From Nannocystales bacterium (lineage in GTDB: Bacteria; Myxococcota_A; Polyangia; Nannocystales; Nannocystaceae), in contig JBOEGF010000005.1 of the NCBI GenBank assembly GCA_050633305.1, positions 192,001 through 256,000 of the forward strand: 64,000 bases of DNA, written 5' to 3'. Each line of letters starts with the position of its first letter. The first letter of the stretch is position 1. Shown here in pieces: positions 1,016 through 12,262 of this stretch. A program made the position numbers and the translations under genes. The notes under the pieces were generated by a model, which was given only the letters and a program-made list of their open reading frames with translations, was not told where the DNA came from and ran no database searches.

Positions 1016-2595
1016 ACCGAAAGGCCACCGTGGCCGTCGCGGTTGCGGCGGTCACGTTCATCATCGTGCTCTCCCTCGACTTCGGCGTGACGCATCCCGG
1101 GAATGCGCTCGAAGCCGTCGCGTCCCTTCTCGCGGGCATGGGCCAGCCCGACCTTCGTCCGCAGACCTTGCTGCGTGTCTCGGAGCTTGCGGCACAGACG
1201 ATCGCCGTCGCGGTGCTGGGGACCGGGTTGGGTGCTGGGCTCGGTCTGATGTTGGCCATGGTGGGGGCGACTGCCAGTGTCGGAGGCCACCGGGCTCCGG
1301 GGCGCCGAGTCTTGGCAGAGGTGTTGCGGCTGGGGCTCGACGGCCTACGAGCGATTCCCGATTTCGCCTGGGCACTCGCGCTACTCGTGGTGCTGGGCCC
1401 CGGTCCTCTCACCGGAACATTCGCGATCGCGGTGTCCGTGACCGGCATCTTGGGTCGTGCGTTCGGCCAGCTCCTCGAGTCCGTGCCTGAACACAAGGTG
1501 CAAGGAGTTGAGCGCCTGGCCGGGTCACCGATGGCGGCGGTGATTTACGGTCGCCTGCCACACATCGCACCCGCGGCGTGGTCCTACGGTCTGGCGCGCC
1601 TAGAATGCTCGATCCGAAACGCGTCTGTGATCGGAATCGTCGGCGGCGGCGGGCTCGGTGCGGAGCTGTTCGAGGAACTCGGATACGGGCGCATGGATCG
1701 GGTGGCCACGCTGTTGATGGGCCTGGTCATCCTGACGGCGGTAGCCGACGTCGGGTCCGGAATGCTGCGTCGCGGCTTGGGCGGGGTGGGTCTTCGAGCC
1801 CGTCGCTCTGCGCTGCATGCGGCGCTTCTGGTGTCTGCCGCGAGCCTGGCCTGGCTGACTCCCGCGGCGTTCGAGCTCATCGATGCGCTCGCGCGTCTCG
1901 ACCTCCGAGTGGCTGCGGCTTCCGGTGCCCGCCTTCTTCAACCCGACCTCTCGAGACAAACGCTCGGTGAAGTCTTCCGGGGTGTCGGGGCTCCGGTGGG
2001 GCTGGCCTGGCTGTCGATGGGTGCCGCCACTGGCGTCGCGTTGATGTTCCTGCCCTGGACCAGCACGGGGGTCCGGCGACGGGCCCACGGAGTCGCGGCG
2101 TCTGATTCGAGGCTTGCTGTGTTCATCGCGTGGCTGCTGCGGGGATTGGCGCTGCTGGCCCGAGCGGTACCCGAAGTTGCCTGGCTGTTGCTCTTCGCCG
2201 CCGCGCTGGGCATGGGGCCGTTGCCCGCCGTGCTGGCGTTGGGACTGCATGCGTCCGGAATCCTGGTTCGTCTGTTCACCGAAGCGGTGGACGACCGGTT
2301 CGGGACGGCTCCGCACCGGGGCATCGGTGCTGGTGCGGGGGTTGGCTGGCTTGTCTACGCGGCCCTTCCCCGACTGCGTGGCACCCTCGCCACACACACG
2401 GCCCTGCAGGCGGAGTCCAACCTTCGTTCCGCGTTCACACTCGGAATCCTCGGCGCCGGCGGCTTGGGCAACGCGTTTCATAGCGCGATTAGCTACTGGC
2501 AGCTCGAGCGCGCATCGACTCTCGCACTGGGGATGCTGGTGTTGTTTGTCGGGCTCGACCGCGCGGGGCGTCGGTTGTCGCGCCTTGTGGGTTGA
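1012..2595 (+). CDS. PhnE/PtxC-like ABC permease with two fused permease domains
   Basis: Two copies of the RAIP/RAVP...GILGR/GILVR...E..IR.A...GI.G.GGLG pattern, many TM segments; ATGA overlap with the ATPase. Confidence 0.88.
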   Translation: MNRKATVAVAVAAVTFIIVLSLDFGVTHPGNALEAVASLLAGMGQPDLRPQTLLRVSELAAQTIAVAVLGTGLGAGLGLMLAMVGATASVGGHRAPGRRVLAEVLRLGLDGLRAIPDFAWALALLVVLGPGPLTGTFAIAVSVTGILGRAFGQLLESVPEHKVQGVERLAGSPMAAVIYGRLPHIAPAAWSYGLARLECSIRNASVIGIVGGGGLGAELFEELGYGRMDRVATLLMGLVILTAVADVGSGMLRRGLGGVGLRARRSALHAALLVSAASLAWLTPAAFELIDALARLDLRVAAASGARLLQPDLSRQTLGEVFRGVGAPVGLAWLSMGAATGVALMFLPWTSTGVRRRAHGVAASDSRLAVFIAWLLRGLALLARAVPEVAWLLLFAAALGMGPLPAVLALGLHASGILVRLFTEAVDDRFGTAPHRGIGAGAGVGWLVYAALPRLRGTLATHTALQAESNLRSAFTLGILGAGGLGNAFHSAISYWQLERASTLALGMLVLFVGLDRAGRRLSRLVG

Positions 2596-2819
2596 ACCGG
2601 ACAACTCTGCGTGGAAAATGTCCTCTGGACGTCGATAAAGGGTCTGTTGACCTTAAAAGTGTGGAGGTCGCTTTGACTCTCCGCTCTGGGCATTCATGGT
2701 GGGGCTGACACTAAACTGGAAAATCACGAGATATCGCTGAAAAACGTTGCTCAAGAAACCCTCCAACGGCTCGAGGAAGGCGGAGTCCGCACGGATGTCA
2801 GCGGCCGGATGGTGAGGCA

Positions 2820-4655
2820 CTACGGTGCAAGCAGGCGGTCGATGGTCATGACCATCGCGTCTGCATCGAACTCCCGGCGCAGGTAGGCGATGGTGCCGTC
2901 TCGGTCGACAATGACGTCGAGCGGAAACGGGCTGATCGCATTGTCCGGGTCCGCGTAGTCGAAGTATGTGGTGTCGTCGCGCAGGATCGGAAAGCTGACG
3001 CCGGTTTGACCGACGAACCCGGCCAAGGTGGAGGCGGACTCATTGCCGAACAGGCCAGGGCCGCTGAGGCCCAGCACGACGACTTCGCTTTCGGGGTACT
3101 GCTGGCGGATGCGAGTTTCGAGTTCTGGAAACTCCAGAACGCAGACGGGTCAGAAGGTGGCGAAGTAGGCCAGCACGGCCACCTTTCCTTCGAGGTCCGC
3201 GTGAGTCCAGGTGTTCCCTTCGAGGTCTCGCAGCGCGAAGGACGGGGCAGGGTCGCCGACGGCAAGTCCGGGGACGTTCGCGGTCAGGGGGACTTCGAGG
3301 CGAGGTTCGTCGGGGTCGTCGCTGCAGACCCGAATCGCGCTTTGGAGCGACGCGGATGAACCCGGGCTGAGCTGGACTTCGACTGCTTTGGAGCGACCTG
3401 GTTCGACGACGAAGCACGTCTCGTCCACCGTGACGTCGGCGGACCCTGTCACATCGTGGACCGTCAGCGGGCGGGTGCCGCTGTTGGAGATGAGCAAGAC
3501 GCGGGCATCTGAGTCCGATGGTTGAACGTTGCCGAACTGCAGTGAGCTCGGGCTGAGGTCGACCTCGGGTCCTGCTGAGGCGCTGTAGGCGAATGCGTGG
3601 AGGCCGGTCCACTCTCCGCCAAACACCCTGGCCCGTGCTGCGACAGCGCCGACGGCCAGGACCCGGGAGAAGCTGTCGTCGGTGGGGACGGTCTCCGAGA
3701 ACAGGGAAACCGGGTCGGCGGGTTCGGTGAAGTCGTAGCCGCGCAAAGAGTCCCATTGCGCGACGACGATCTGTCGGGGACCCAGCAAGGCCACATCGAG
3801 CGCGGTTCCCGAGACGGGTTGCTCGGCCAGGAGAGCGGCTGCGCTGGTGTCGGCGACGTCCACGATGCTGATACCACTGGAGGTGACGACGTACGCCCTG
3901 TCGTCCTCGAGCAGCACATCGTGACTCGAGCCCTGAAGCGCTACGGTGGAGAGCAATCGGGGGTCGCGCTCCGACACGTCGAACAGGCGCAGACCGGAGC
4001 CTCCATCGGCCAGCGCGAGCAGGTCGTCCCGCAAGACGGGCTGCCATGCGTCGGTGCCTTCCTCCACCACTCGACCGGTCTCGACCACGTCTCCGTCGGC
4101 AAGCTCCAGCGCGACCAGACCATGTCCGTGCAGGGCGGCGAAGATCCGGTTCCCCCGAATCGCGACACCTTCGATCGAGCCCGAGACTGGACTCCAGCTG
4201 CCGAGGAGTTGTGGCCGACTCGGATCCGCGAGGTTGTAGATCGCGAGCCACGGGGTCGGCTGAACTTCATCTCCGCGGTTGGTGATGACGACCCGGGAGG
4301 TGTCAGGATCGAAGCCGACATGCTGGCAACGGGGAAACTGGCTGTTGGAGAGGCCGGCGCCCGGAGAGACGCGTTCGACCAACAGTTGTGGGACCTCTTG
4401 GGATGTGTCGAAGACCGAGAATCCTCGCACTCCGCTGCAGACGAGGGCGAGGTCGCCGTGGGCGAGGATGTCGGTGATCTCGAAGAAGGTGTTCGTGTTG
4501 GCGCGACCCAGGTGTTGCAAGGGGTCGACGGTCGCTCCGGGCGAGGTTGGGCACCCAGGCCGGGCCGCAGACCGACACAGAGCTGGGGCGGCGGGGTCGG
4601 GCTCGACGGCACAGCCGACCAGAGCGAAGAGCGACAGCAGGGTTCGGGCGTTCAT
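2820..4655 (-). CDS. Selenoprotein (611 aa, Sec502): lipoprotein with LVIVD-repeat propeller, Ig-like domain and C-terminal AhpC/TSA (TlpA-like) redoxin domain, UxxC motif
   Basis: ORFs 3150..4655 and 2820..3077 share a frame; TGA at 3150-3152 reads GKVAVLAYFATF-U-PVCVLEFPEL; redoxin motifs on both sides (VGDPAPSFALRDLEG; PFPLDVIVDRDG); lipobox LVGC; hairpin follows the TGA. Confidence 0.88.
3122..3140 (-). promoter_or_regulatory. Candidate bacterial SECIS element (copy 1)
   Basis: GTTCTGG-AGTTT-CCAGAAC, a perfect 7-bp stem at +10..+28 after the UGA; G at second loop position. Confidence 0.75.
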
Positions 4656-6580
4656 TCGTCGAGCAGCTGTTGAAGGGTGGTGTCCATGGCCTCGACGTCG
4701 AACTCGCGACGTAGGTACCGAATGGTTCCCGTGCGGTCCAAGATGACGTCGAGGGGGTAGGGGGAAATGGCGGCGTCGGAGAATGCAAGTTGACCCCGAG
4801 TCGTGTCCTGCATCAACAGTGGAAACGTGACCTGTGTCTGTTCGCGAAACGCGGACACGGTCGACTCTGATTCACCGCCGAACAGACCCGCGCCGGACAT
4901 GCCGAGCACGACCAGGTCGTCGCGGTGGTTGTAGCGCTGCCAGAGCTTGGTCTCGATGTCTGGAAACTCCAGACTGCAGACGGGTCAGAAGGTGGCGAAG
5001 TACGCCAGGAGGACGACCTTCCCCTCGAGGTCGGCGCGTGTCCAATCGTTGCCGTCGATGTCCTGCAGCATGAAGTCCGGCATCGGATCTCCGATGTCGG
5101 CCCCCGCTGCATTGCCATTGAATCGCAGCTCGTACTCGGGCTCGTCCGGGTCGTCGGTCTGCAACAGAAGCGAGCCGGAGGTGACGTCGTCAGAGTCCGG
5201 GGCGAACCGGAGCTCCAGGGCGTGCACACCTCCGGGGTCGACGGTGAAACACGCGTCGTCGACGGAAACGGTGTCGCGCTCCGTGGTGTACCCGTAGACG
5301 TTGAGCGGCTGGTCGCCTTCGTTGCGGACCACCACGACGCGGTCTTCGGTGTCCCCTGCTTCGATACGTCCAAACTGGACCGAGGCCGGGGCAGCCGCGA
5401 TCTCCGGCCCGGTGGCGCGAGCTTGGCTCTCGAACATGTGCATCCCGGTCCACTCGCCCGCGTACAGGCGCGGCATCTCCGGGTGGGGGGCGAGCGTCAG
5501 GACGCGAGAGAAGTCGTCTCCGGTTGGCACGACCTCCGACCACACGCGGGTGAGCTCGTTCGGTTCGTACGCCCGGACCTCGTCCCACTCGGCGCTGTAC
5601 ACGAGGCCGTTTGCGCCCAGTGCGATGGCGACCGAGGTGCCCGCGGCGGGAGCCTGGGCGGCGACGGCAGGCACCGATGGATCGGTGACGTCGAGTCGAA
5701 CGACGGAGGACGACGCGGCGACGTAGAGGGCATCGTCGTCGAGGACCAAGTCTCGACTCGAGCCGCCGAGTGCCAGCGTGCTGAGCAGGACAGGGTCGTC
5801 GCCCGAGACGTCGTACACCCGAACACCGGTCGCGCCTTCGGCGACGTAGAGGAGGCCGCCCGCGAAGACAGGGAGCCAAGCGTCCGACGCGTCGTCGGCG
5901 AACGAACCCACCTGTTCGAGCACTTCGCCGCCGGTGTCTTCGAATACGAGCACGCCAGCTGTGTGCGCGGCTGCGAAGATTCGGTCTCCGTCCCACACCA
6001 CGCCCTCGATGGACGCATCACCCGTCCACCCGCGCAGGGCGATCGGCTCTTCACGATCTTCGACGTTGTACACGTGCAGCCAAGGCTGGGGCTGAACCTC
6101 GTCACCCCGGTTGGTGATCGCGGCTCGCCGTCCTTCGGCGTCGAGGGCAACGTGTTGGCAGCGCGGGAACTGCCGGTTGGAAACCCCCGGCGGTCCGATG
6201 CGGGCGGAGACCAATGTGCCTGCGTCGTTGGAAACGTCCCACGTCATCATGCCCTGGGTGGCGGTGCAGCCGTAGACCAGCTCGCCCCGAGCTTCGAGGT
6301 CGAGGATCTCAATGAAGGTGCCGCTCTCGGCGCGGCCGCGGTGCACGAGTCCGTCGACGGTGGTGATGGGATCGGGGGCTGGACAAGCGGGTGGTGCGTC
6401 GCCACTGCTGTCGTCGGCCCCGGAGCTTCCGGTCATTCCGCCGGTCTGCGGGGTACTCGTTGCGGGGCTCGTGTCGCTTGGGCGGTCTGTACCTCCCACC
6501 GGCGCGGCGTTGCCGTCGCTGGGCCCTTGGCAGCCCGCCGCGGCGGCGCCGAGGACCGCGCTCAACACTCCAAAACGCAT
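4652..6580 (-). CDS. Selenoprotein paralog (642 aa, Sec532): lipoprotein, LVIVD propeller, Ig-like domain and AhpC/TSA redoxin domain, UxxC motif
   Basis: ORFs 4985..6592 and 4652..4909 share a frame; TGA at 4985-4987 reads GKVVLLAYFATF-U-PVCSLEFPDI; the read-through product ends in an ATGA overlap with the next gene; lipobox-like AAGC; ATG at 6580 chosen. Confidence 0.88.
4958..4974 (-). promoter_or_regulatory. Candidate bacterial SECIS element (copy 2)
   Basis: GTCTGG-AGTTT-CCAGAC, a 6-bp stem at +11..+27 after the UGA; same loop and offset as copy 1 with a compensatory U-A/G-C change. Confidence 0.75.
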
Positions 6581-6699
6581 GTTGCTGAGCAATACGGGGT
6601 CGGAGGACCCAGGTTACGTCGGGAGGGAGGACACCCGTACAGGTGCTCCAGTTCCCCAGTCCCTTGGGGCGGCCGGCCTGGCTCGCTACTGTGGTGCAG

Positions 6700-7488
6700 A
6701 TGAGAAGGACCTCCGTGGGCCTCGCCCTTGTCGTGGCCGCTGCGCCTTCGTGGGCCCTGGCGAAAGACCCCCCGCCCAAGCCGCTTCGAGCCTCGCTCGA
6801 GGTCGAGGCGGGTGAGGCCGAGGACGGCAAGGAACTCGAGGAACGCGTGAACACGGCGCTCGGAGCTCGACTCCGCAAAGCCGAAGTGTTGCCACGAAAA
6901 TCGTTGGAGGATGGCCTCATCCACGTGGAGGTGAGCCCGCTGCCCGATGGCGACGGTTACCACTACGACGTCTACGCAGAGCAGGCGGACCGAACGCTCG
7001 CAGAGACGAAGACCGAGGCCGACTGTGCGGGGTGTGATGAGGCGGCCCTGCTCGAGGCCATCGGGGTGGCCGTCGACAAGTGTCTGCCTCCGCTGGCGGC
7101 GAGCGTCGCCGAGGCGGTGGTTGAGCCCGAGGAACCCCCTGCGGCATCTGTGGCGGTCACGCCCGTGCAGAGCTCCCCGTCCGACGAGGACCGCCGGGCA
7201 GGACCGCTGGGAAAAGCTGGCATCGGGCTGATGGTTGCGGGCGCCGCGACAGCCGTGGTTGGGGTCATCTTCGTTGTGAACGGGCGTTCGTTTGACACCC
7301 GCCCCGGCGCGCTGGAGCAGGAAGGGGTCGATTTTCGCCCGCCAGGCTTCGCGTTGCTGGCCGGCGGCGTGGCGACGTTGATCACAGGAGGTGTCCTGTA
7401 CGGAGTCGACCGCAAGCGGCGGAAAAGGAAGGCCAGCGTGTCGTGGATCCCCGGGGGTGCGGCGGCGTCGATCGGAGGGCGATTCTAG
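6700..7488 (+). CDS. Hypothetical exported protein with C-terminal hydrophobic hairpin
   Basis: Signal peptide (…PSWALA), CAGC motif, Pro-rich linker, two hydrophobic segments, ends in GGRF. Confidence 0.75.
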   Translation: MRRTSVGLALVVAAAPSWALAKDPPPKPLRASLEVEAGEAEDGKELEERVNTALGARLRKAEVLPRKSLEDGLIHVEVSPLPDGDGYHYDVYAEQADRTLAETKTEADCAGCDEAALLEAIGVAVDKCLPPLAASVAEAVVEPEEPPAASVAVTPVQSSPSDEDRRAGPLGKAGIGLMVAGAATAVVGVIFVVNGRSFDTRPGALEQEGVDFRPPGFALLAGGVATLITGGVLYGVDRKRRKRKASVSWIPGGAAASIGGRF

Positions 7489-9089
7489 TGGCTCACTCCC
7501 GCCTCTTGGTGTTCGGCGCGGTGTTGCTCGCGATGGCCGCAGGCTGCCCCTTCTCTTTCACCAACGACGACCACTGCGCGGCCCAGGCTGGCGACGCGAC
7601 CTGTGCAGCCGCGAACGCGGCGACCCCGTACTGCGCGCTCGATGGGTGCGGGCTGTATGACGAGGCCGACAACATCAGCGGGTGCGTGGCCGAGCTACCC
7701 ACCGACCTGTCCTGCTACAGCCCGTGTGGCGGCAAGCAAGACGCCAACGCACAGAGCGACTGCGATGCGCCCGCGACGGAGGCGACCAGCGTCTCCTCGT
7801 CGTCGGACACAGATACGCTGACGTCCGGATCCGCTTCGACCGACGCATCGGGCACCGAGACGGACTCGTGCGCGTGCGAGGGCGACACGCCGATCTGCGT
7901 GGATGGGGAGTGTGTGGCCTGTGTCGACGATGACGCCTGTGCCCAGGCGGGGCTGCCATCGATCTGCGATGACGGACGATGTGTCGAATGCCAGCCGATG
8001 CAGGCAGACATCGCCGCGGAGGACGAATCGATAGACGGCCGTCAGTCGTATCACCAGGGCTGCTCCATCAGCGCACCGAACTGCAACACGGGTGCTTGTG
8101 TCGGGCAGTGTTTGTTCCACGACGATTGTCCTGGGAGCGGCTGTGACTTCTCGACCGGACTGTGCGGTCCCCTCGACACGCGCTTCTACGTCGACGAGAC
8201 CGCGGGTGCCGATGACCCGGAGGCTTCGGGCTCCCAAGGAGCGCCGTTTGCGACGGTCGGGTTCGCAGTCGAGCGCGTCGCGGAGGCCTCCGGCATGGGG
8301 ACGGCGATCGTGACCGTGGTCGTGTCCGAGGGGAACTACCTTGGCCCGATTGAGACCGGCGCTCGAACTGTGATCGTCATCGCCGACCCCGACGGGGACA
8401 GGCCTCAGTTCAGCGCCCCGGACGAAACGGCGGACGCGGATCCTGTCTTTGTGGTCGACGCCGACAACGCTGTCCTGTCCTTGGGCAGCGTTCGTGTCGC
8501 GAACTCGGAGCTCGTTGTTCGTGTCGCGTCGACCGGGCAGTTCTTCGGCGACGGCGTGGAGATGGTGGACAACAACTCCGCCGTGCGGCTGGAGGGGGCG
8601 GCGGGATTCGTGCGGAACTCGTTGGTGACGGGGAGCTCGGAGCCTCCCTTCGTCCTCGCGCCGAATGGTGAGCTTGGGGTCATCACGACGACCATCGTGG
8701 AGAATGCAGCGACGATTCTGTTCGAGTGCGAGGACCCAAAGGAGTTCAACCGAATCTCCCTGGCATACAGCATCGCTGGTCAGTTCGATCCTCTGCCCAA
8801 GGGGTGGTCCGTGCTCAGCCCATCGTGCGCGTTTGCTCCCGGGTATCCGGTGATCGAGGACAACGCGGTGGAGGTCGTGCCCGGTGAGGACTCGTTCGCG
8901 ACGGGCACGTTGTTCCGCCTCGACACCAACGCCTCAGAGGCCTACCGGGCCGACGAGCGGCCGGAGGCCTGTGCCGAGGGAACGCCGACCGTGGATGAGG
9001 GCTTCCTGCTGCCGTGCCCTCCGGACCGAGACGTCGACGGTGTCTTGCGGCCCGACGCGTACTGGCGAGGGTTCAGCGCAAACCCGTAA
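7488..9089 (+). CDS. Cys-rich lipoprotein with probable C-terminal beta-helix (pectin-lyase-like) domain
   Basis: Lipobox AAGC, Cys-rich repeats, Ser/Thr linker, FYVD...GSQGAPFAT...GNY motif typical of beta-helix N-caps; GTG overlaps the upstream TAG. Confidence 0.7.
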   Translation: MAHSRLLVFGAVLLAMAAGCPFSFTNDDHCAAQAGDATCAAANAATPYCALDGCGLYDEADNISGCVAELPTDLSCYSPCGGKQDANAQSDCDAPATEATSVSSSSDTDTLTSGSASTDASGTETDSCACEGDTPICVDGECVACVDDDACAQAGLPSICDDGRCVECQPMQADIAAEDESIDGRQSYHQGCSISAPNCNTGACVGQCLFHDDCPGSGCDFSTGLCGPLDTRFYVDETAGADDPEASGSQGAPFATVGFAVERVAEASGMGTAIVTVVVSEGNYLGPIETGARTVIVIADPDGDRPQFSAPDETADADPVFVVDADNAVLSLGSVRVANSELVVRVASTGQFFGDGVEMVDNNSAVRLEGAAGFVRNSLVTGSSEPPFVLAPNGELGVITTTIVENAATILFECEDPKEFNRISLAYSIAGQFDPLPKGWSVLSPSCAFAPGYPVIEDNAVEVVPGEDSFATGTLFRLDTNASEAYRADERPEACAEGTPTVDEGFLLPCPPDRDVDGVLRPDAYWRGFSANP

Positions 9090-9091
9090 CG

Positions 9092-12000
9092 TTAGTCGCC
9101 GCTCTTCTCCGGGTGCGACTGCAGGCGCTGTTTGGGCCCGGTGATTCGACGGGCCAGGCCGACGACGTCCTCCAGCATCATGTAGTAGGCGGGGACCAAG
9201 AGCAGAATGATGAATGTCGCGAACAGAACGCCGAATCCCAAGCTGATCGCCATCGGGACCAGGAATCGGGCCTGCACGCTCGTCTCGGTGATCATGGGGA
9301 TCAGGCCGAAGAATGTCGTCAGCGACGTGAGCAGGATCGGGCGGAACCGCCGGACTCCTGCCGCGTGAATCGCATCGAACGCGGTCATCCCGTCACGGCG
9401 GTAGCCGTTGGCGGCGTCGATGAGAACCAGCGAGTCGTTGACGACAACCCCCGCCAAGGCGATCAGGCCCATGATGCTGATCATGCTCAGCTCAAACCCC
9501 ATCACGACGTGGCCGGCGAGGGCACCGATGAACCCGAAGGGGATCGCGCTCATCACGATGATCGGTTGTGCGTAGCTGCGGAACGGAACCGCCAGCAGGC
9601 CGAAGATGGCGATCATCGCCAACACGCCCCCACGGGAGAGGCTTCCCATCGACTTTGCTTGCTCTCGCGCTGCCCCTCCGAACTCATAGGTGAGTCCGGG
9701 GAACTGCTCGAGGAGCGCGGGTAGCGGTCCTGTCTTGAGCGCGCTCAGGACAACGTCCGGGCTGGTGCCGGGACGAACCTGGGCCGAAACCGGGACCATT
9801 CGTCGGCCCTCGGCGCGAAGGATCGAGGGTCGAGAGCGTCCGCCTTCGATGTCGGCCACCTCGGTCAGGGGGACCTCACCCCCCTCGGGTGTGCGCAGCA
9901 TCAGGGTTTCGACATCGTGCAGGCTGCCTCGTTCGTCCGCGGGAAGCCGGACGAGCACCCGCACCTCGTTGCGGCCCTCCTGCTGACGGAGCGCCTCGGC
10001 GCCGTAGAACGACGAGCGAACTTGGCGCGCGACATCGGCGGTGACCAGACCTAGGCTTGTCCCTTCCGGGGACATGGTCATCTCGAGTTGGGCTTTGCCG
10101 AGCGCGAACCCGTCGTCTACGTCGTAGACCTCTGGATACGCTCGCAGTTTCTCAGCAAGAACCTGAGACGCTGCGTCGAGTACGTCCATGTCGTCGTGCT
10201 GCAACTCGACGTTGATGGGTGCTCCGGGGCTTGGGCCCAGCGCGCTGCTGAAGGTGAGCTTCTCGGCGCCGGCGATCTGTCCGAGGCGACGTCGCCACTC
10301 GTCCAGAAACGCTTGGCTCTGTAGGGTGCGCTCCCCAGCGTCGACGAAGAACACCTGGACGTTCGCGAGATGACCGCCGGGGACGGAGACCATCGCTTGC
10401 GCAGGGTCCCCTGGAAGCGGGGTTCCGACTTGGCTGAATACGCCGCGCACGATGCCCTCCTCGCCGTTTTCGTCGAGGATCTCCTGCGCGACGCTGAGCA
10501 TCCTGCGTCGGATGCGTTCGGTCTCCGCAATCGGGGTGCCGAAGGGCATCTGAACGTCGGCGATGGTCACATCCCCGGCGATGTCCGGCATGAATCGGAA
10601 CGGAGTGTGCCCCCCTGCGACCCAGCCTCCAGCCGCGATGAGCATGCCCAGCCCGATGGCGAACGAGGTGTAGCGCCACCGAAGGGCGACGGCGAGGACC
10701 GGGCCGTAGACCCCCTTGATGAACTGCTCGAGCGCACGCCGGACTTTTTGCTGCTGATGGTGCACCGCGGCGTATAGGCCGGTGGCTTTGGGATCCTTGA
10801 GCGCCGCCAGGTGGGCTGGGAGTACCCACAGCGACTCGACCAACGAGATGACCAGTACCGAGATGACGATCGCCGGAATCACCCGGTAGAGCTTTCCGCT
10901 CACACCGGGGACGAATGCCATCGGCAGGAACGAGGCGACCGAGGTCGCGATGGCGAAACACACCGGAACGCCCACCTGTTGCGCACCCTCGACCGCAGCC
11001 TGCAGGGCAGGCACGCCCCGCTGCCGCATCTCGTAGATGTTCTCGCCGACGACGATCGCATCGTCGACCACCATGCCGAGCACGACGATGAAGGCGAACA
11101 ACGAGATCATGTTCACCGTCACGTCGAGCGTCGGCATGAACAGGACTGCGCCCAAGAAACTGACAGGGATGCCCATCGTCACCCAGAACGCCAGCCGCAG
11201 TTCCAAGAAGAGTCCCAAGATCAGCAGGACGAGCACGAGGCCGATCGCCGCGTTGCGCAGGAGCAAGTCGATTCGCTGCTGGTAGATCTCCGACCAGTCC
11301 AGCCAGGTGTTGGCGGAGACCCCCGGAGGCAATTCGGTCTCGAGACGGTCGAGGTGTTTGTGAACCGCGGCGGCGACCTCGAGCGGGGTCTGGTCGCCGG
11401 TTCGGAACACCTTGATCATCAACGCGGGCTCGCCTTCCCAGTACGACCGCTCGTCGGTCTCAGCGAAGGTTTCGCGAATCGTGGCGATCTGGCCAAGCGT
11501 GAGCTCGGTGCCCGTGCTGCCCGTCAACAGGGGCAGGGCTTCGAAGTCGGCGGCCCCGTAGCGTTTTTCGGCGGTGCGAAGGAGGACCTCGCCGCCTTCG
11601 GTTCGGACGGAGCCTCCTGCGAGTTCGACCGACGTCGCGCGTACCTTGGTCGCGACGTCATCAAGCGTGATGCCGTGGGCTCTTAGCTGCGCTTGGGGCA
11701 CTTCGATACTGAGCTCGTGCCCGGGGGCACCGACCAGCTCGGCGGTCGTGATTCCTGCGTCGGCGACCAGTTCGTCGCGGAGCCTCTCGCCGAGCATTCG
11801 AAGCTGGTTGCGGGGGATGTCCCCGTGCAGGACAACCGAGATGACCTCGAACTTGTTGGTGACGAGACTGACGATGGGGCGTTCGGCGTCCTGCGGGAGC
11901 GAGGTCAGCCGGTCGACGGCGTTCTTGACGTCTGCGAGCACCGTCGTGGGCTCGGCTTCCAACTCCATCGTCACATAGACTTGACCGGATCCTTCTGTTG

Positions 12001-12262
12001 CCGCACCGCTGACCCTATCGACACCGTCGATGCCGCGCACGGATTCCTCGAGCGCGAGGACGATGCCCTGTTCGACCTCGTCGGGGCTCGCCCCCGGGTA
12101 GGGGACGGTGATGCGGACGACCCCGAGCTTGAACTCGGGGAAAACCTCTTGTTTGATCGTGCAGGTCGAGAACAGGCCGCCGAGAAGCAGCAGGAACATG
12201 ACGAGGTTGGCGGCGACAGGGTTGCTGGCGAACCAGCGGATCGTGCCCCGTCGTTCACTCAC
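9092..12262 (-). CDS. RND efflux transporter permease (AcrB/AcrD/AcrF family)
   Basis: 1056 aa; YPGASP, GMVVDDAIVVGEN, GVVVNDSLVL and RFRPILLTSLTT motifs. Confidence 0.95.
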   Translation of the reverse strand: MSERRGTIRWFASNPVAANLVMFLLLLGGLFSTCTIKQEVFPEFKLGVVRITVPYPGASPDEVEQGIVLALEESVRGIDGVDRVSGAATEGSGQVYVTMELEAEPTTVLADVKNAVDRLTSLPQDAERPIVSLVTNKFEVISVVLHGDIPRNQLRMLGERLRDELVADAGITTAELVGAPGHELSIEVPQAQLRAHGITLDDVATKVRATSVELAGGSVRTEGGEVLLRTAEKRYGAADFEALPLLTGSTGTELTLGQIATIRETFAETDERSYWEGEPALMIKVFRTGDQTPLEVAAAVHKHLDRLETELPPGVSANTWLDWSEIYQQRIDLLLRNAAIGLVLVLLILGLFLELRLAFWVTMGIPVSFLGAVLFMPTLDVTVNMISLFAFIVVLGMVVDDAIVVGENIYEMRQRGVPALQAAVEGAQQVGVPVCFAIATSVASFLPMAFVPGVSGKLYRVIPAIVISVLVISLVESLWVLPAHLAALKDPKATGLYAAVHHQQQKVRRALEQFIKGVYGPVLAVALRWRYTSFAIGLGMLIAAGGWVAGGHTPFRFMPDIAGDVTIADVQMPFGTPIAETERIRRRMLSVAQEILDENGEEGIVRGVFSQVGTPLPGDPAQAMVSVPGGHLANVQVFFVDAGERTLQSQAFLDEWRRRLGQIAGAEKLTFSSALGPSPGAPINVELQHDDMDVLDAASQVLAEKLRAYPEVYDVDDGFALGKAQLEMTMSPEGTSLGLVTADVARQVRSSFYGAEALRQQEGRNEVRVLVRLPADERGSLHDVETLMLRTPEGGEVPLTEVADIEGGRSRPSILRAEGRRMVPVSAQVRPGTSPDVVLSALKTGPLPALLEQFPGLTYEFGGAAREQAKSMGSLSRGGVLAMIAIFGLLAVPFRSYAQPIIVMSAIPFGFIGALAGHVVMGFELSMISIMGLIALAGVVVNDSLVLIDAANGYRRDGMTAFDAIHAAGVRRFRPILLTSLTTFFGLIPMITETSVQARFLVPMAISLGFGVLFATFIILLLVPAYYMMLEDVVGLARRITGPKQRLQSHPEKSGD

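Follow-up and report, generated by a model that had tools for sequence, protein, structure and literature searches.

In-frame UGA codons in a tandem pair of propeller-redoxin genes from a Nannocystales bacterium point to a widespread family of exported selenoproteins

Introduction

The stretch of Nannocystales bacterium DNA analyzed here (the window: 64,000 nucleotides (nt), contig JBOEGF010000005.1, positions 192,001 to 256,000) carries on its minus strand two adjacent paralogous genes, A and B, each with an in-frame TGA in place of the first Cys of the CxxC motif of a redoxin domain. Is this codon a stop, or is it read as selenocysteine (Sec, U), and what would the resulting proteins do? An earlier note, made from the letters alone, had claimed that both genes read YFATF-U-PVC at the TGA with about 110 redoxin codons to follow, that they meet in an ATGA overlap, and that their products, of 642 and 611 amino acids (aa), are exported selenoproteins which standard pipelines would split. 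The codons were found at 4985-4987 and 3150-3152, 110 and 109 codons continue in frame, the overlap is present at 4652-4655, and both the lengths and the Sec reading held under test. Our preferred interpretation, to which we give a probability of roughly 0.6, is that each product would be a lidded, lipid-anchored Sec reductase of the cell envelope with a specific substrate in its propeller cavity.

Results

Layout of the gene pair

4652..6580, minus: gene A, 642-aa selenoprotein (lipoprotein signal, low-complexity linker, propeller, Ig, UxxC redoxin)
6530..6580, minus: gene A signal peptide, ending by eye in a lipobox-like AAGC (Cys17)
6362..6529, minus: gene A Gly/Ser/Thr/Pro-rich linker (residues 18-73), not present in gene B
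5417..6361, minus: gene A beta-propeller (about residues 74-388; boundaries carried over from gene B)
5111..5407, minus: gene A Ig-like domain (HYDIN/ASH); choice-of-anchor D 42.7 bits, below the cut-off of 45
4655..5095, minus: gene A redoxin domain (Pfam), U532-P-V-C535
4985..4987, minus: gene A Sec codon TGA (codon 532)
4958..4974, minus: gene A bacterial SECIS (selenocysteine insertion sequence) hairpin; stem of 6-7 bp, loop AGUUU from 16 nt past the UGA, G at +18
4652..4655, minus: ATGA overlap of the A stop and the B start
2820..4655, minus: gene B, 611-aa selenoprotein, 48% identical to A
4611..4655, minus: gene B signal peptide, ending by eye in a lipobox-like LVGC (Cys15)
3576..4529, minus: gene B seven-bladed beta-propeller (residues 43-360); top-face E59, R109, R127, E162, H176, W204, W301, R331 and W349 conserved
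3276..3569, minus: gene B Ig-like domain; choice-of-anchor D (NF012200) 47.8 bits, above the cut-off of 45
2823..3260, minus: gene B redoxin domain, U502-P-V-C505, E508, P510, P578
3150..3152, minus: gene B Sec codon TGA (codon 502)
3122..3140, minus: gene B SECIS hairpin; loop and register as in A, with a compensatory change in the stem

Gene A has an alternative start, TTG at 6592. By domain, A and B are 60% identical in the redoxin, 44% in the propeller and 36% in the Ig. The ATGA overlap suggests that their translation may be coupled, and a C73-C110 disulfide is likely in the propeller of B. Rfam gave no match within 2500-6800 of the window, and no promoter- or terminator-like site was found.

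Reading of the TGA codons as selenocysteine

From the comparison of sequences we regard it as nearly certain that the UGA of both genes is read through as Sec, with SelB acting on an in-frame hairpin. The Sec machinery, for which the earlier note had proposed a search, is present in the source genome (11.0 Mb, 66% G+C; nearest named relatives, metagenome-assembled genomes of Nannocystaceae/Myxococcota): selA, selB and selD all score above their model cut-offs, selD carrying a TGA of its own, and a tRNA-Sec was detected (67 bits vs 47). Among the 84 family-length homologues examined, the corresponding column holds TGA in 54, TGC or TGT in 30 and other codons in 0, and no non-Cys residue, the outcome that would have spoken against Sec, was seen. 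At 59 further loci, which were chosen for having TGA and some of which overlap the set of 84, all 60 of 60 family-length genes carry TGA at exactly that column. Altogether, the column shows TGA, and never TAA or TAG, in more than 100 genes across many lineages, and its persistence in dozens of independent assemblies speaks against a sequencing error. In a 400-genome sample of the phylum, selA was found in 58 of 58 genomes with a TGA-bearing match and in 246 of 400 overall. The Cys form occurs in two complete Sorangium genomes without selA; Cys forms also occur in genomes with selA. On a quick tree the Sec/Cys label switches three times, a large Cys group (25) being nested in Sec branches; a change from Sec to Cys is suggested, and no more than suggested, because the tree is midpoint-rooted.

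The recoding signal itself is apparent in the RNA sequence. By the criteria given in the available text of a catalogue of selenoprotein families (PMC13188914), a bacterial SECIS (bSECIS) has a loop of 3-9 nt with a G in its first two positions, lies 16-37 nt past the UGA and folds with -7.5 kcal/mol or less; both window hairpins fall within these limits, with the loop AGUUU at 16 nt and energies of -11.6 and -14.0 kcal/mol. Of the 54 TGA forms, 49 have all six core stem pairs complete; none of the 30 Cys forms does. The G at +18 is present in 54/54 and 9/30, respectively. Four stem positions show several pair types, that is, covariation, and in one subclade the stem has moved by one base with the G retained; when two registers are counted, all six pairs are possible in 53 of 60 sequences and five in the other 7, against four at most in Cys forms. 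Under synonymous resampling of the window genes, the observed pairing was reached at p 0.013 and 0.026. The window hairpins use the codons TTT and CCA, whose usage in the source genome is 17% and 11%. The RNA stem would appear to shape the protein encoded after UxxC. The residues at that place are mostly xEFPD, xELPD or SEVSD in Sec forms and NHLPD in the Sorangium Cys clade.

One could still take the TGAs for true stops or errors, with separate propeller-Ig lipoproteins followed by redoxin remnants, and all databases do annotate the genes as truncated. Such a stop would, however, sever the domain at its catalytic residue, and a TGA at one column in so many genes, the intact Cys homologues, the covarying hairpin and the association with selA leave this explanation with next to no credence. 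Some points nevertheless weigh against the Sec reading: selA has no match in three of ten TGA-bearing close relatives, these three being 71-83% complete; 19 of the 30 Cys rows form one Sorangium/Polyangium clade, and kin sequences are not independent; the folding energy of the hairpins relative to shuffles is unremarkable when taken alone (z -1.0 and -1.1); and the stem register was derived from these very sequences. One DNA run, available as contigs, contains 42% of the sequence words, and no differing letter was listed for it at either TGA; its depth is 2-6 with relatives mixed in, and nothing is drawn from it. No RNA run was listed.

The source genome has a third, distant paralogue (L036, contig C18, 114251-115990; about 28% identity), whose TGA lies in ADW-U-TAC and whose SECIS stem is fully compensated. 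A second Sec in homologue genome G040 was considered and ruled out, the second TGA being a stop. Other likely selenoprotein genes of the source genome lie at C5:271923, C43:106110, C32:274059, C24:25172 and C4:133193-134122 (contig:position); by eye, except for selD, they are two AhpC/TSA-like UxxC proteins, a DsbA/DsbG-like UPFC protein, a glutathione-peroxidase-like protein and selD. A genome-wide scan for UGA plus hairpin gave 391 of 7240 among the matches listed, and is too noisy for a count.

Annotation and spread of the family

Calling of open reading frames with translation table 11 cuts the pair into four pieces (535 and 501 aa, plus two of 85 aa), the split that had been foreseen, and the protein collection holds truncated forms of 501 and 531 aa. 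Likewise, of 69 protein-database matches, including the window's own two, 64 end at the residue preceding the UGA, the other five being partial domain matches; truncated members with names are called 'hypothetical' or 'DUF1573 domain-containing protein'. A profile search of 1.84 billion representatives was dominated by Ig/LVIVD repeat proteins, and the four full-length single-stretch matches examined from it are Cys forms. In metagenomes, a degenerate UGA+SECIS pattern retrieved at least 121 loci, all matching the family profile; this set is silent on TGA frequency because the pattern fixed the TGA. A plasmid search at E<=1e-15 returned no family match. Judged by these sequences, the family is widespread, exported and cut in two by databases. 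The tandem arrangement is a local feature and not, as the earlier note might suggest, a rule of the family; an obligatory A-B heterodimer as a family rule was rejected because most family genes occur singly.

Domain anatomy and fold

Pfam AhpC-TSA (PF00578) spans the TGA in both proteins (E 2.9e-14 and 2.3e-15); it and Redoxin (PF08534) are both above cut-off in both, with UxxC, and an Ig domain lies N-terminal to the redoxin. LVIVD (PF08309) had no match in the two window proteins at E<=0.1, and homologues exceed its cut-off. Of the architecture first proposed, LVIVD propeller plus Ig plus UxxC, the propeller fold, the Ig domain and the motif are thus upheld by model and Pfam, and the LVIVD assignment applies to homologues only. 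The AlphaFold2 model (gene B numbering, 22-row alignment; pLDDT 88.5, pTM 0.85) places a seven-bladed propeller at residues 43-360, followed by an Ig sandwich at 363-460 and a thioredoxin fold at 466-609. Fold matches of the propeller reach Z 33, and fold searches gave no function, the propeller lists being filled with tied WD40-type matches.

The nearest solved structures of the redoxin are ResA (E 1e-10). The domain nevertheless stays below every ResA, TlpA and peroxiredoxin cut-off, with 53-54 vs 170 bits for the ResA model, 19-26 vs 230 for TlpA and 15-21 vs 140-260 for peroxiredoxin models. A Sec-dependent peroxidase acting against peroxides at the cell surface could be envisaged, given that AhpC-TSA is the best Pfam match and that the genome has other Sec peroxidase-like genes. 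We find it improbable: besides the low peroxiredoxin scores, the PxxxTxxC/U motif is missing from the window proteins, which read YFATF-U-PVC instead, and a conserved propeller pocket would be superfluous for a peroxidase.

Such a pocket is suggested by conserved non-structural residues of the propeller. In a non-redundant alignment of 131 rows (<70% identity), they are kept in the following numbers of rows: E59 89, R109 90, E162 94, H176 84, W204 85, W301 90, W349 120, R127 74 and R331 66. According to the strand list, all of them begin inner strands or lie in b-c loops, that is, on one face.

Docking of the redoxin onto the propeller

When the propeller and the redoxin of a Cys homologue (L058) were folded as separate chains, the docking score was 0.66, against 0.11 for the best of three controls; among solved complexes, 116 of 157 reach the mark used, as do 2 of 215 mismatches. 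The runs had at least 75% of contacts in common, with a partner pLDDT of at least 82. In gene B numbering, the interface falls on that conserved face, at E59, Q111, R127, D129, H176, W301, D302, R331 and W349. On the redoxin side it takes in residues 499-504, which surround the Sec, and the helix that follows the motif. R109, E162 and W204 fall outside it and, in the model, would line the space under the lid. These results support a lid-like placement of the redox motif on the conserved top face of the propeller, in a fold and a lid geometry that are modelled. The docking model thereby lends some support to the suggestion that the propeller may bind a substrate of the Sec domain.

The cluster of Glu and His beneath this lid would also suit a surface trap or sensor for metals or metalloids, in which Sec/Cys together with Glu/His bind Cu, Hg or As or form a metal center, without thiol-disulfide turnover; moreover, Foldseek ranks first a propeller hydrolase with a binuclear Mn center (5hrm, E 8.5e-13). 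That match has, however, no lead over dozens of WD40 propellers (Z 32.0 vs 33.3, 15% identity), UxxC occupies the canonical thioredoxin position, and in the 22 largest neighbor clusters of the 92 loci no metal-transport or resistance genes recur. We therefore hold a metal-binding role to be unlikely, if less so than a peroxidase.

Cellular location

Export is supported in the window proteins by the lipobox-like signals seen by eye and in homologues by export signals, as the earlier note had it. Among homologues, 51 of 64 show a lipobox-like signal (by eye and with a loose regular expression), members from Myxococcota starting with such a Cys, and the lipobox Cys column is invariant in 22 rows and kept in 89 of 131 in the wider set. 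The window proteins are probably lipid-anchored in the envelope, and they probably face outward.

Marine homologues differ in that a type IX secretion system (T9SS) tail lies downstream of the UGA in place of the lipid anchor. Of the metagenome pattern matches with flanks, 24 of 83 extend beyond the redoxin; among 22 scanned tails, 7 scored above the Por_Secre_tail cut-off, 16 above Por_Secre_tail or FlgD_ig and 1 above Dockerin_1, with three just under, and TIGR04183 was above cut-off in 2 of 6 (L209 and L211, both also with LVIVD, Ig and redoxin). Nine tailed metagenome homologues (L209, L211, L227, L190, L206, L237, L186, L195 and L200) begin with a plain signal peptide and carry, past the UGA, a tail of T9SS or dockerin type. 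T9SS tails direct proteins to the cell surface, so the family would act outside the outer membrane at least in its tailed forms; lying behind the UGA, the tail would be made only after read-through. If cut at the UGA, the low-G+C tailed forms are 459-463 aa long, the length of Atlas clusters in which Fidelibacterota are commonest (scores 0.93), and Fidelibacterota may thus be the taxon of the T9SS-tailed forms.

These locations bear on a simpler explanation, in which the Sec is real and the protein is a general, periplasm-facing disulfide reductase of the ResA/TlpA type, with the propeller as scaffold or partner surface and the lid as an oxygen-shielding resting state. A Glu lies three residues past CxxC in 123 of 131 rows and a Pro precedes the last strands, as in ResA; the top-face residues diverge in distant subfamilies; and plain TlpA lipoproteins adjoin the gene in some loci, with DsbD in the genome. 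Against this, the score of the ResA model is far below cut-off, the T9SS- and dockerin-tailed homologues imply work beyond the periplasm, and R109, E162 and W204 are conserved yet outside the modelled interface, as a cavity would predict. We consider the general reductase the most serious competitor, with perhaps one chance in four of being right.

Possible source of electrons

DsbD is encoded in the source genome. In 9 of 92 loci, of different lineages, a TlpA and a DUF6029 gene lie within the flank, often with another redoxin lipoprotein, and in three loci DUF6029 is fused to TlpA. DUF6029 is modelled as a large outer-membrane barrel whose C-terminal Cys644/Cys649 pair, invariant in 71 rows, sits on the hairpin preceding the last strand; by the usual topology, this hairpin would be an outside loop. 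The source genome has such a cluster (L133, C5:398215-402150) of TlpA, redoxin lipoprotein, TlpA and DUF6029 barrel, adjoined by a DsbA-like gene, and the Cys pair of this barrel may be a redox loop. Pfam found DUF6029 in 22 of 58 TGA-bearing genomes vs 84 of 401, with a model that missed the source genome's own homologue. For DUF6029, the one paper naming it suggests, in the part available, polysaccharide export (PMC9603273). A thiol relay through the barrel is put forward here as a hypothesis.

In 26 loci (L070:3662-4498 and 25 others), an uncharacterized lipoprotein without Pfam match and with a conserved CxxxxC adjoins the family gene. The whole Sorangium/Polyangium clade has this neighbor, as does the Sec branch that is sister to it.

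Discussion

The lidded envelope reductase that we favor would work as follows. The ResA/TlpA-like domain would cover the propeller's top face like a lid, with the Ig domain as the stalk that keeps it in place. The Sec-x-x-Cys pair would then look into a cavity whose walls carry conserved Glu, Arg, His and Trp residues. A specific oxidized substrate would bind there, perhaps a small molecule or a flexible protein end that bears a disulfide or sulfoxide; the selenolate would attack it, and Cys505 would resolve the adduct, leaving a selenenyl-sulfide. DsbD-fed redoxins of the TlpA type could then re-reduce the selenenyl-sulfide, possibly across the outer membrane via the DUF6029 Cys pair. The reductase direction, the substrate class and the electron donor are what we infer from this arrangement. 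It is tempting to go further and picture the family as a surface selenoenzyme, lipid-anchored in myxobacteria and T9SS-anchored in marine bacteria of the FCB (Fibrobacteres-Chlorobi-Bacteroidetes) type, whose Sec lid covers a propeller active site and is recharged from the periplasm by an undescribed trans-outer-membrane relay from DsbD through TlpA to a mobile DUF6029 Cys loop; taken as a whole, this picture is doubtful. If it were true, the position of the T9SS tail behind the UGA would make selenium supply a gate for secretion.

Several findings count against the lidded reductase. The docked protein was a Cys homologue that shares about 32% identity with gene B, folded with a custom 31-row alignment, and its two partners are domains of one chain; part of the docking score may be memory, because structures of thioredoxin (Trx) on propeller (NHLRC2, SOQ1) exist. 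Distant subfamilies and the Cys clade have other residues at top-face positions (E59 to H, R109 to G), and the conservation of this face might only reflect the holding of the lid. The window proteins end with the redoxin and have no T9SS sorting domain, and as lipoproteins they might face the periplasm; a surface location in the source organism is presumptive. As for the relay, the DUF6029 cluster lies about 200 kb from the pair in the source genome and is not within the flank in 83 of 92 loci.

Within the known selenoproteins, the novelty claimed in the earlier note was overstated. The catalogue of 119 families (2026) lists, in its available text, a UxxC 'Prx-like thiol:disulfide oxidoreductase' (PF00578) and a 'Redoxin family protein' (PF08534) (PMC13188914), which share with the window pair the domain, the UxxC and the in-frame bSECIS, and two ocean-survey reads of the family's own redoxin (motif UPVCPSEV) had been filed under 'Prx-like 3' in 2008, as given in Dataset S1 (PMC2398784). 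In the accessible entries these selenoproteins consist of the domain alone, with no propeller, Ig, lipoprotein or T9SS context; the propeller fusion is absent from that part of the catalogue, where 'propeller' has 0 occurrences (PMC13188914). The available parts of the deep-Sep (PMC12013277) and BSepDB (PMC13326102) papers make no mention of the family, although full-length BSepDB entries may exist; the organism list of the latter, as far as available, includes Nannocystaceae and Marinimicrobia (PMC13326102). Thus, the chemistry class of the redoxin is already known. The literature searched yielded no description of the full architecture, of the surface targeting or of the possible barrel relay, although individual full-length entries may exist in BSepDB or in Haft and Tolstoy 2025.

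The closest working analogues are NHLRC2 and SOQ1, of which the window pair are not members. Published excerpts describe for NHLRC2 a conserved cleft between the Trx active site and the propeller (PMC6107167) and report SOQ1 as a disulfide and methionine-sulfoxide reductase (10.1101/2024.11.01.621559). Three fold types (Trx-like, propeller and beta-sandwich) are common to these proteins and the family, and SOQ1 (7djl) is at Foldseek rank 40. In NHLRC2 and SOQ1, however, the Trx is N-terminal to an NHL propeller and the motif is CC(I/V)NC, whereas the family has the reverse order, no NHL match, F-U-PVC, a seven-bladed propeller of LVIVD type, Sec and export; a counterpart of their cleft is supported by the model of a Cys homologue only. 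A SOQ1-like transfer to the Ig domain was ruled out, there being no conserved Cys pair in the family Ig.

ResA/TlpA and surface thioredoxin lipoproteins contribute the nearest solved sequences (4nmu, 1st9, 3c71, 2yp6 and 4hqs) and share the CxxCxxExP pattern; they are single-domain Cys proteins, and the ResA, TlpA, StoA and DsbE models all score far below cut-off on the window pair. We take 2yp6 and 4hqs to be pneumococcal surface lipoproteins. HBP35 of Porphyromonas gingivalis, as described in the part of its report available, combines a thioredoxin motif with a C-terminal surface-attachment domain, like the T9SS-tailed homologues (PMC2907840). The DUF1573/OS_HP2 selenoprotein (UGC motif) has a related Ig domain and differs in that its Sec lies inside this Ig, whereas that of the family lies in the redoxin (NF041425, 21 vs 100). 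Concerning HBP35, the likeness is one of description, and to our knowledge that protein has neither Sec nor propeller.

An exported selenoprotein family this widespread, hidden from protein databases, would add selenium chemistry to the bacterial cell surface. It can be viewed as a counterpart, with permuted domains, of the NHLRC2/SOQ1 cleft enzymes, and it points to a function of the orphan DUF6029 barrel that can be tested, the passage of electrons across the outer membrane. The cultured Cys forms of Sorangium and Polyangium, among them that of Sorangium So ce56 (NC_010162.1, near 1.54 Mb), can be expressed and assayed without recoding.

With regard to the surroundings of the pair, a conserved operon was ruled out, the flanks varying even within the genus, two upstream genes excepted. 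The region concerned (6643-9089, plus, and 9092-12262, minus) contains two divergently transcribed genes for exported proteins without Pfam family, which are upstream of the pair also in two same-genus genomes, and after them, by eye, a 1056-aa efflux-permease-like gene. On the other side, an ABC transporter operon (12-2595, plus; ATPase PF00005 and a fused double permease PF00528) converges on the pair and is not kept beside homologues. Altered family genes were also seen: in L030 (G001:C385), an in-frame junction connects codons 1-88 of a gene-A orthologue with the whole of gene B, through a deletion between the paralogues or a misassembly, and in L033 (G011:C170) and L171 (G058:C31) the gene is broken, by frameshift or break, between the propeller/Ig and the redoxin.

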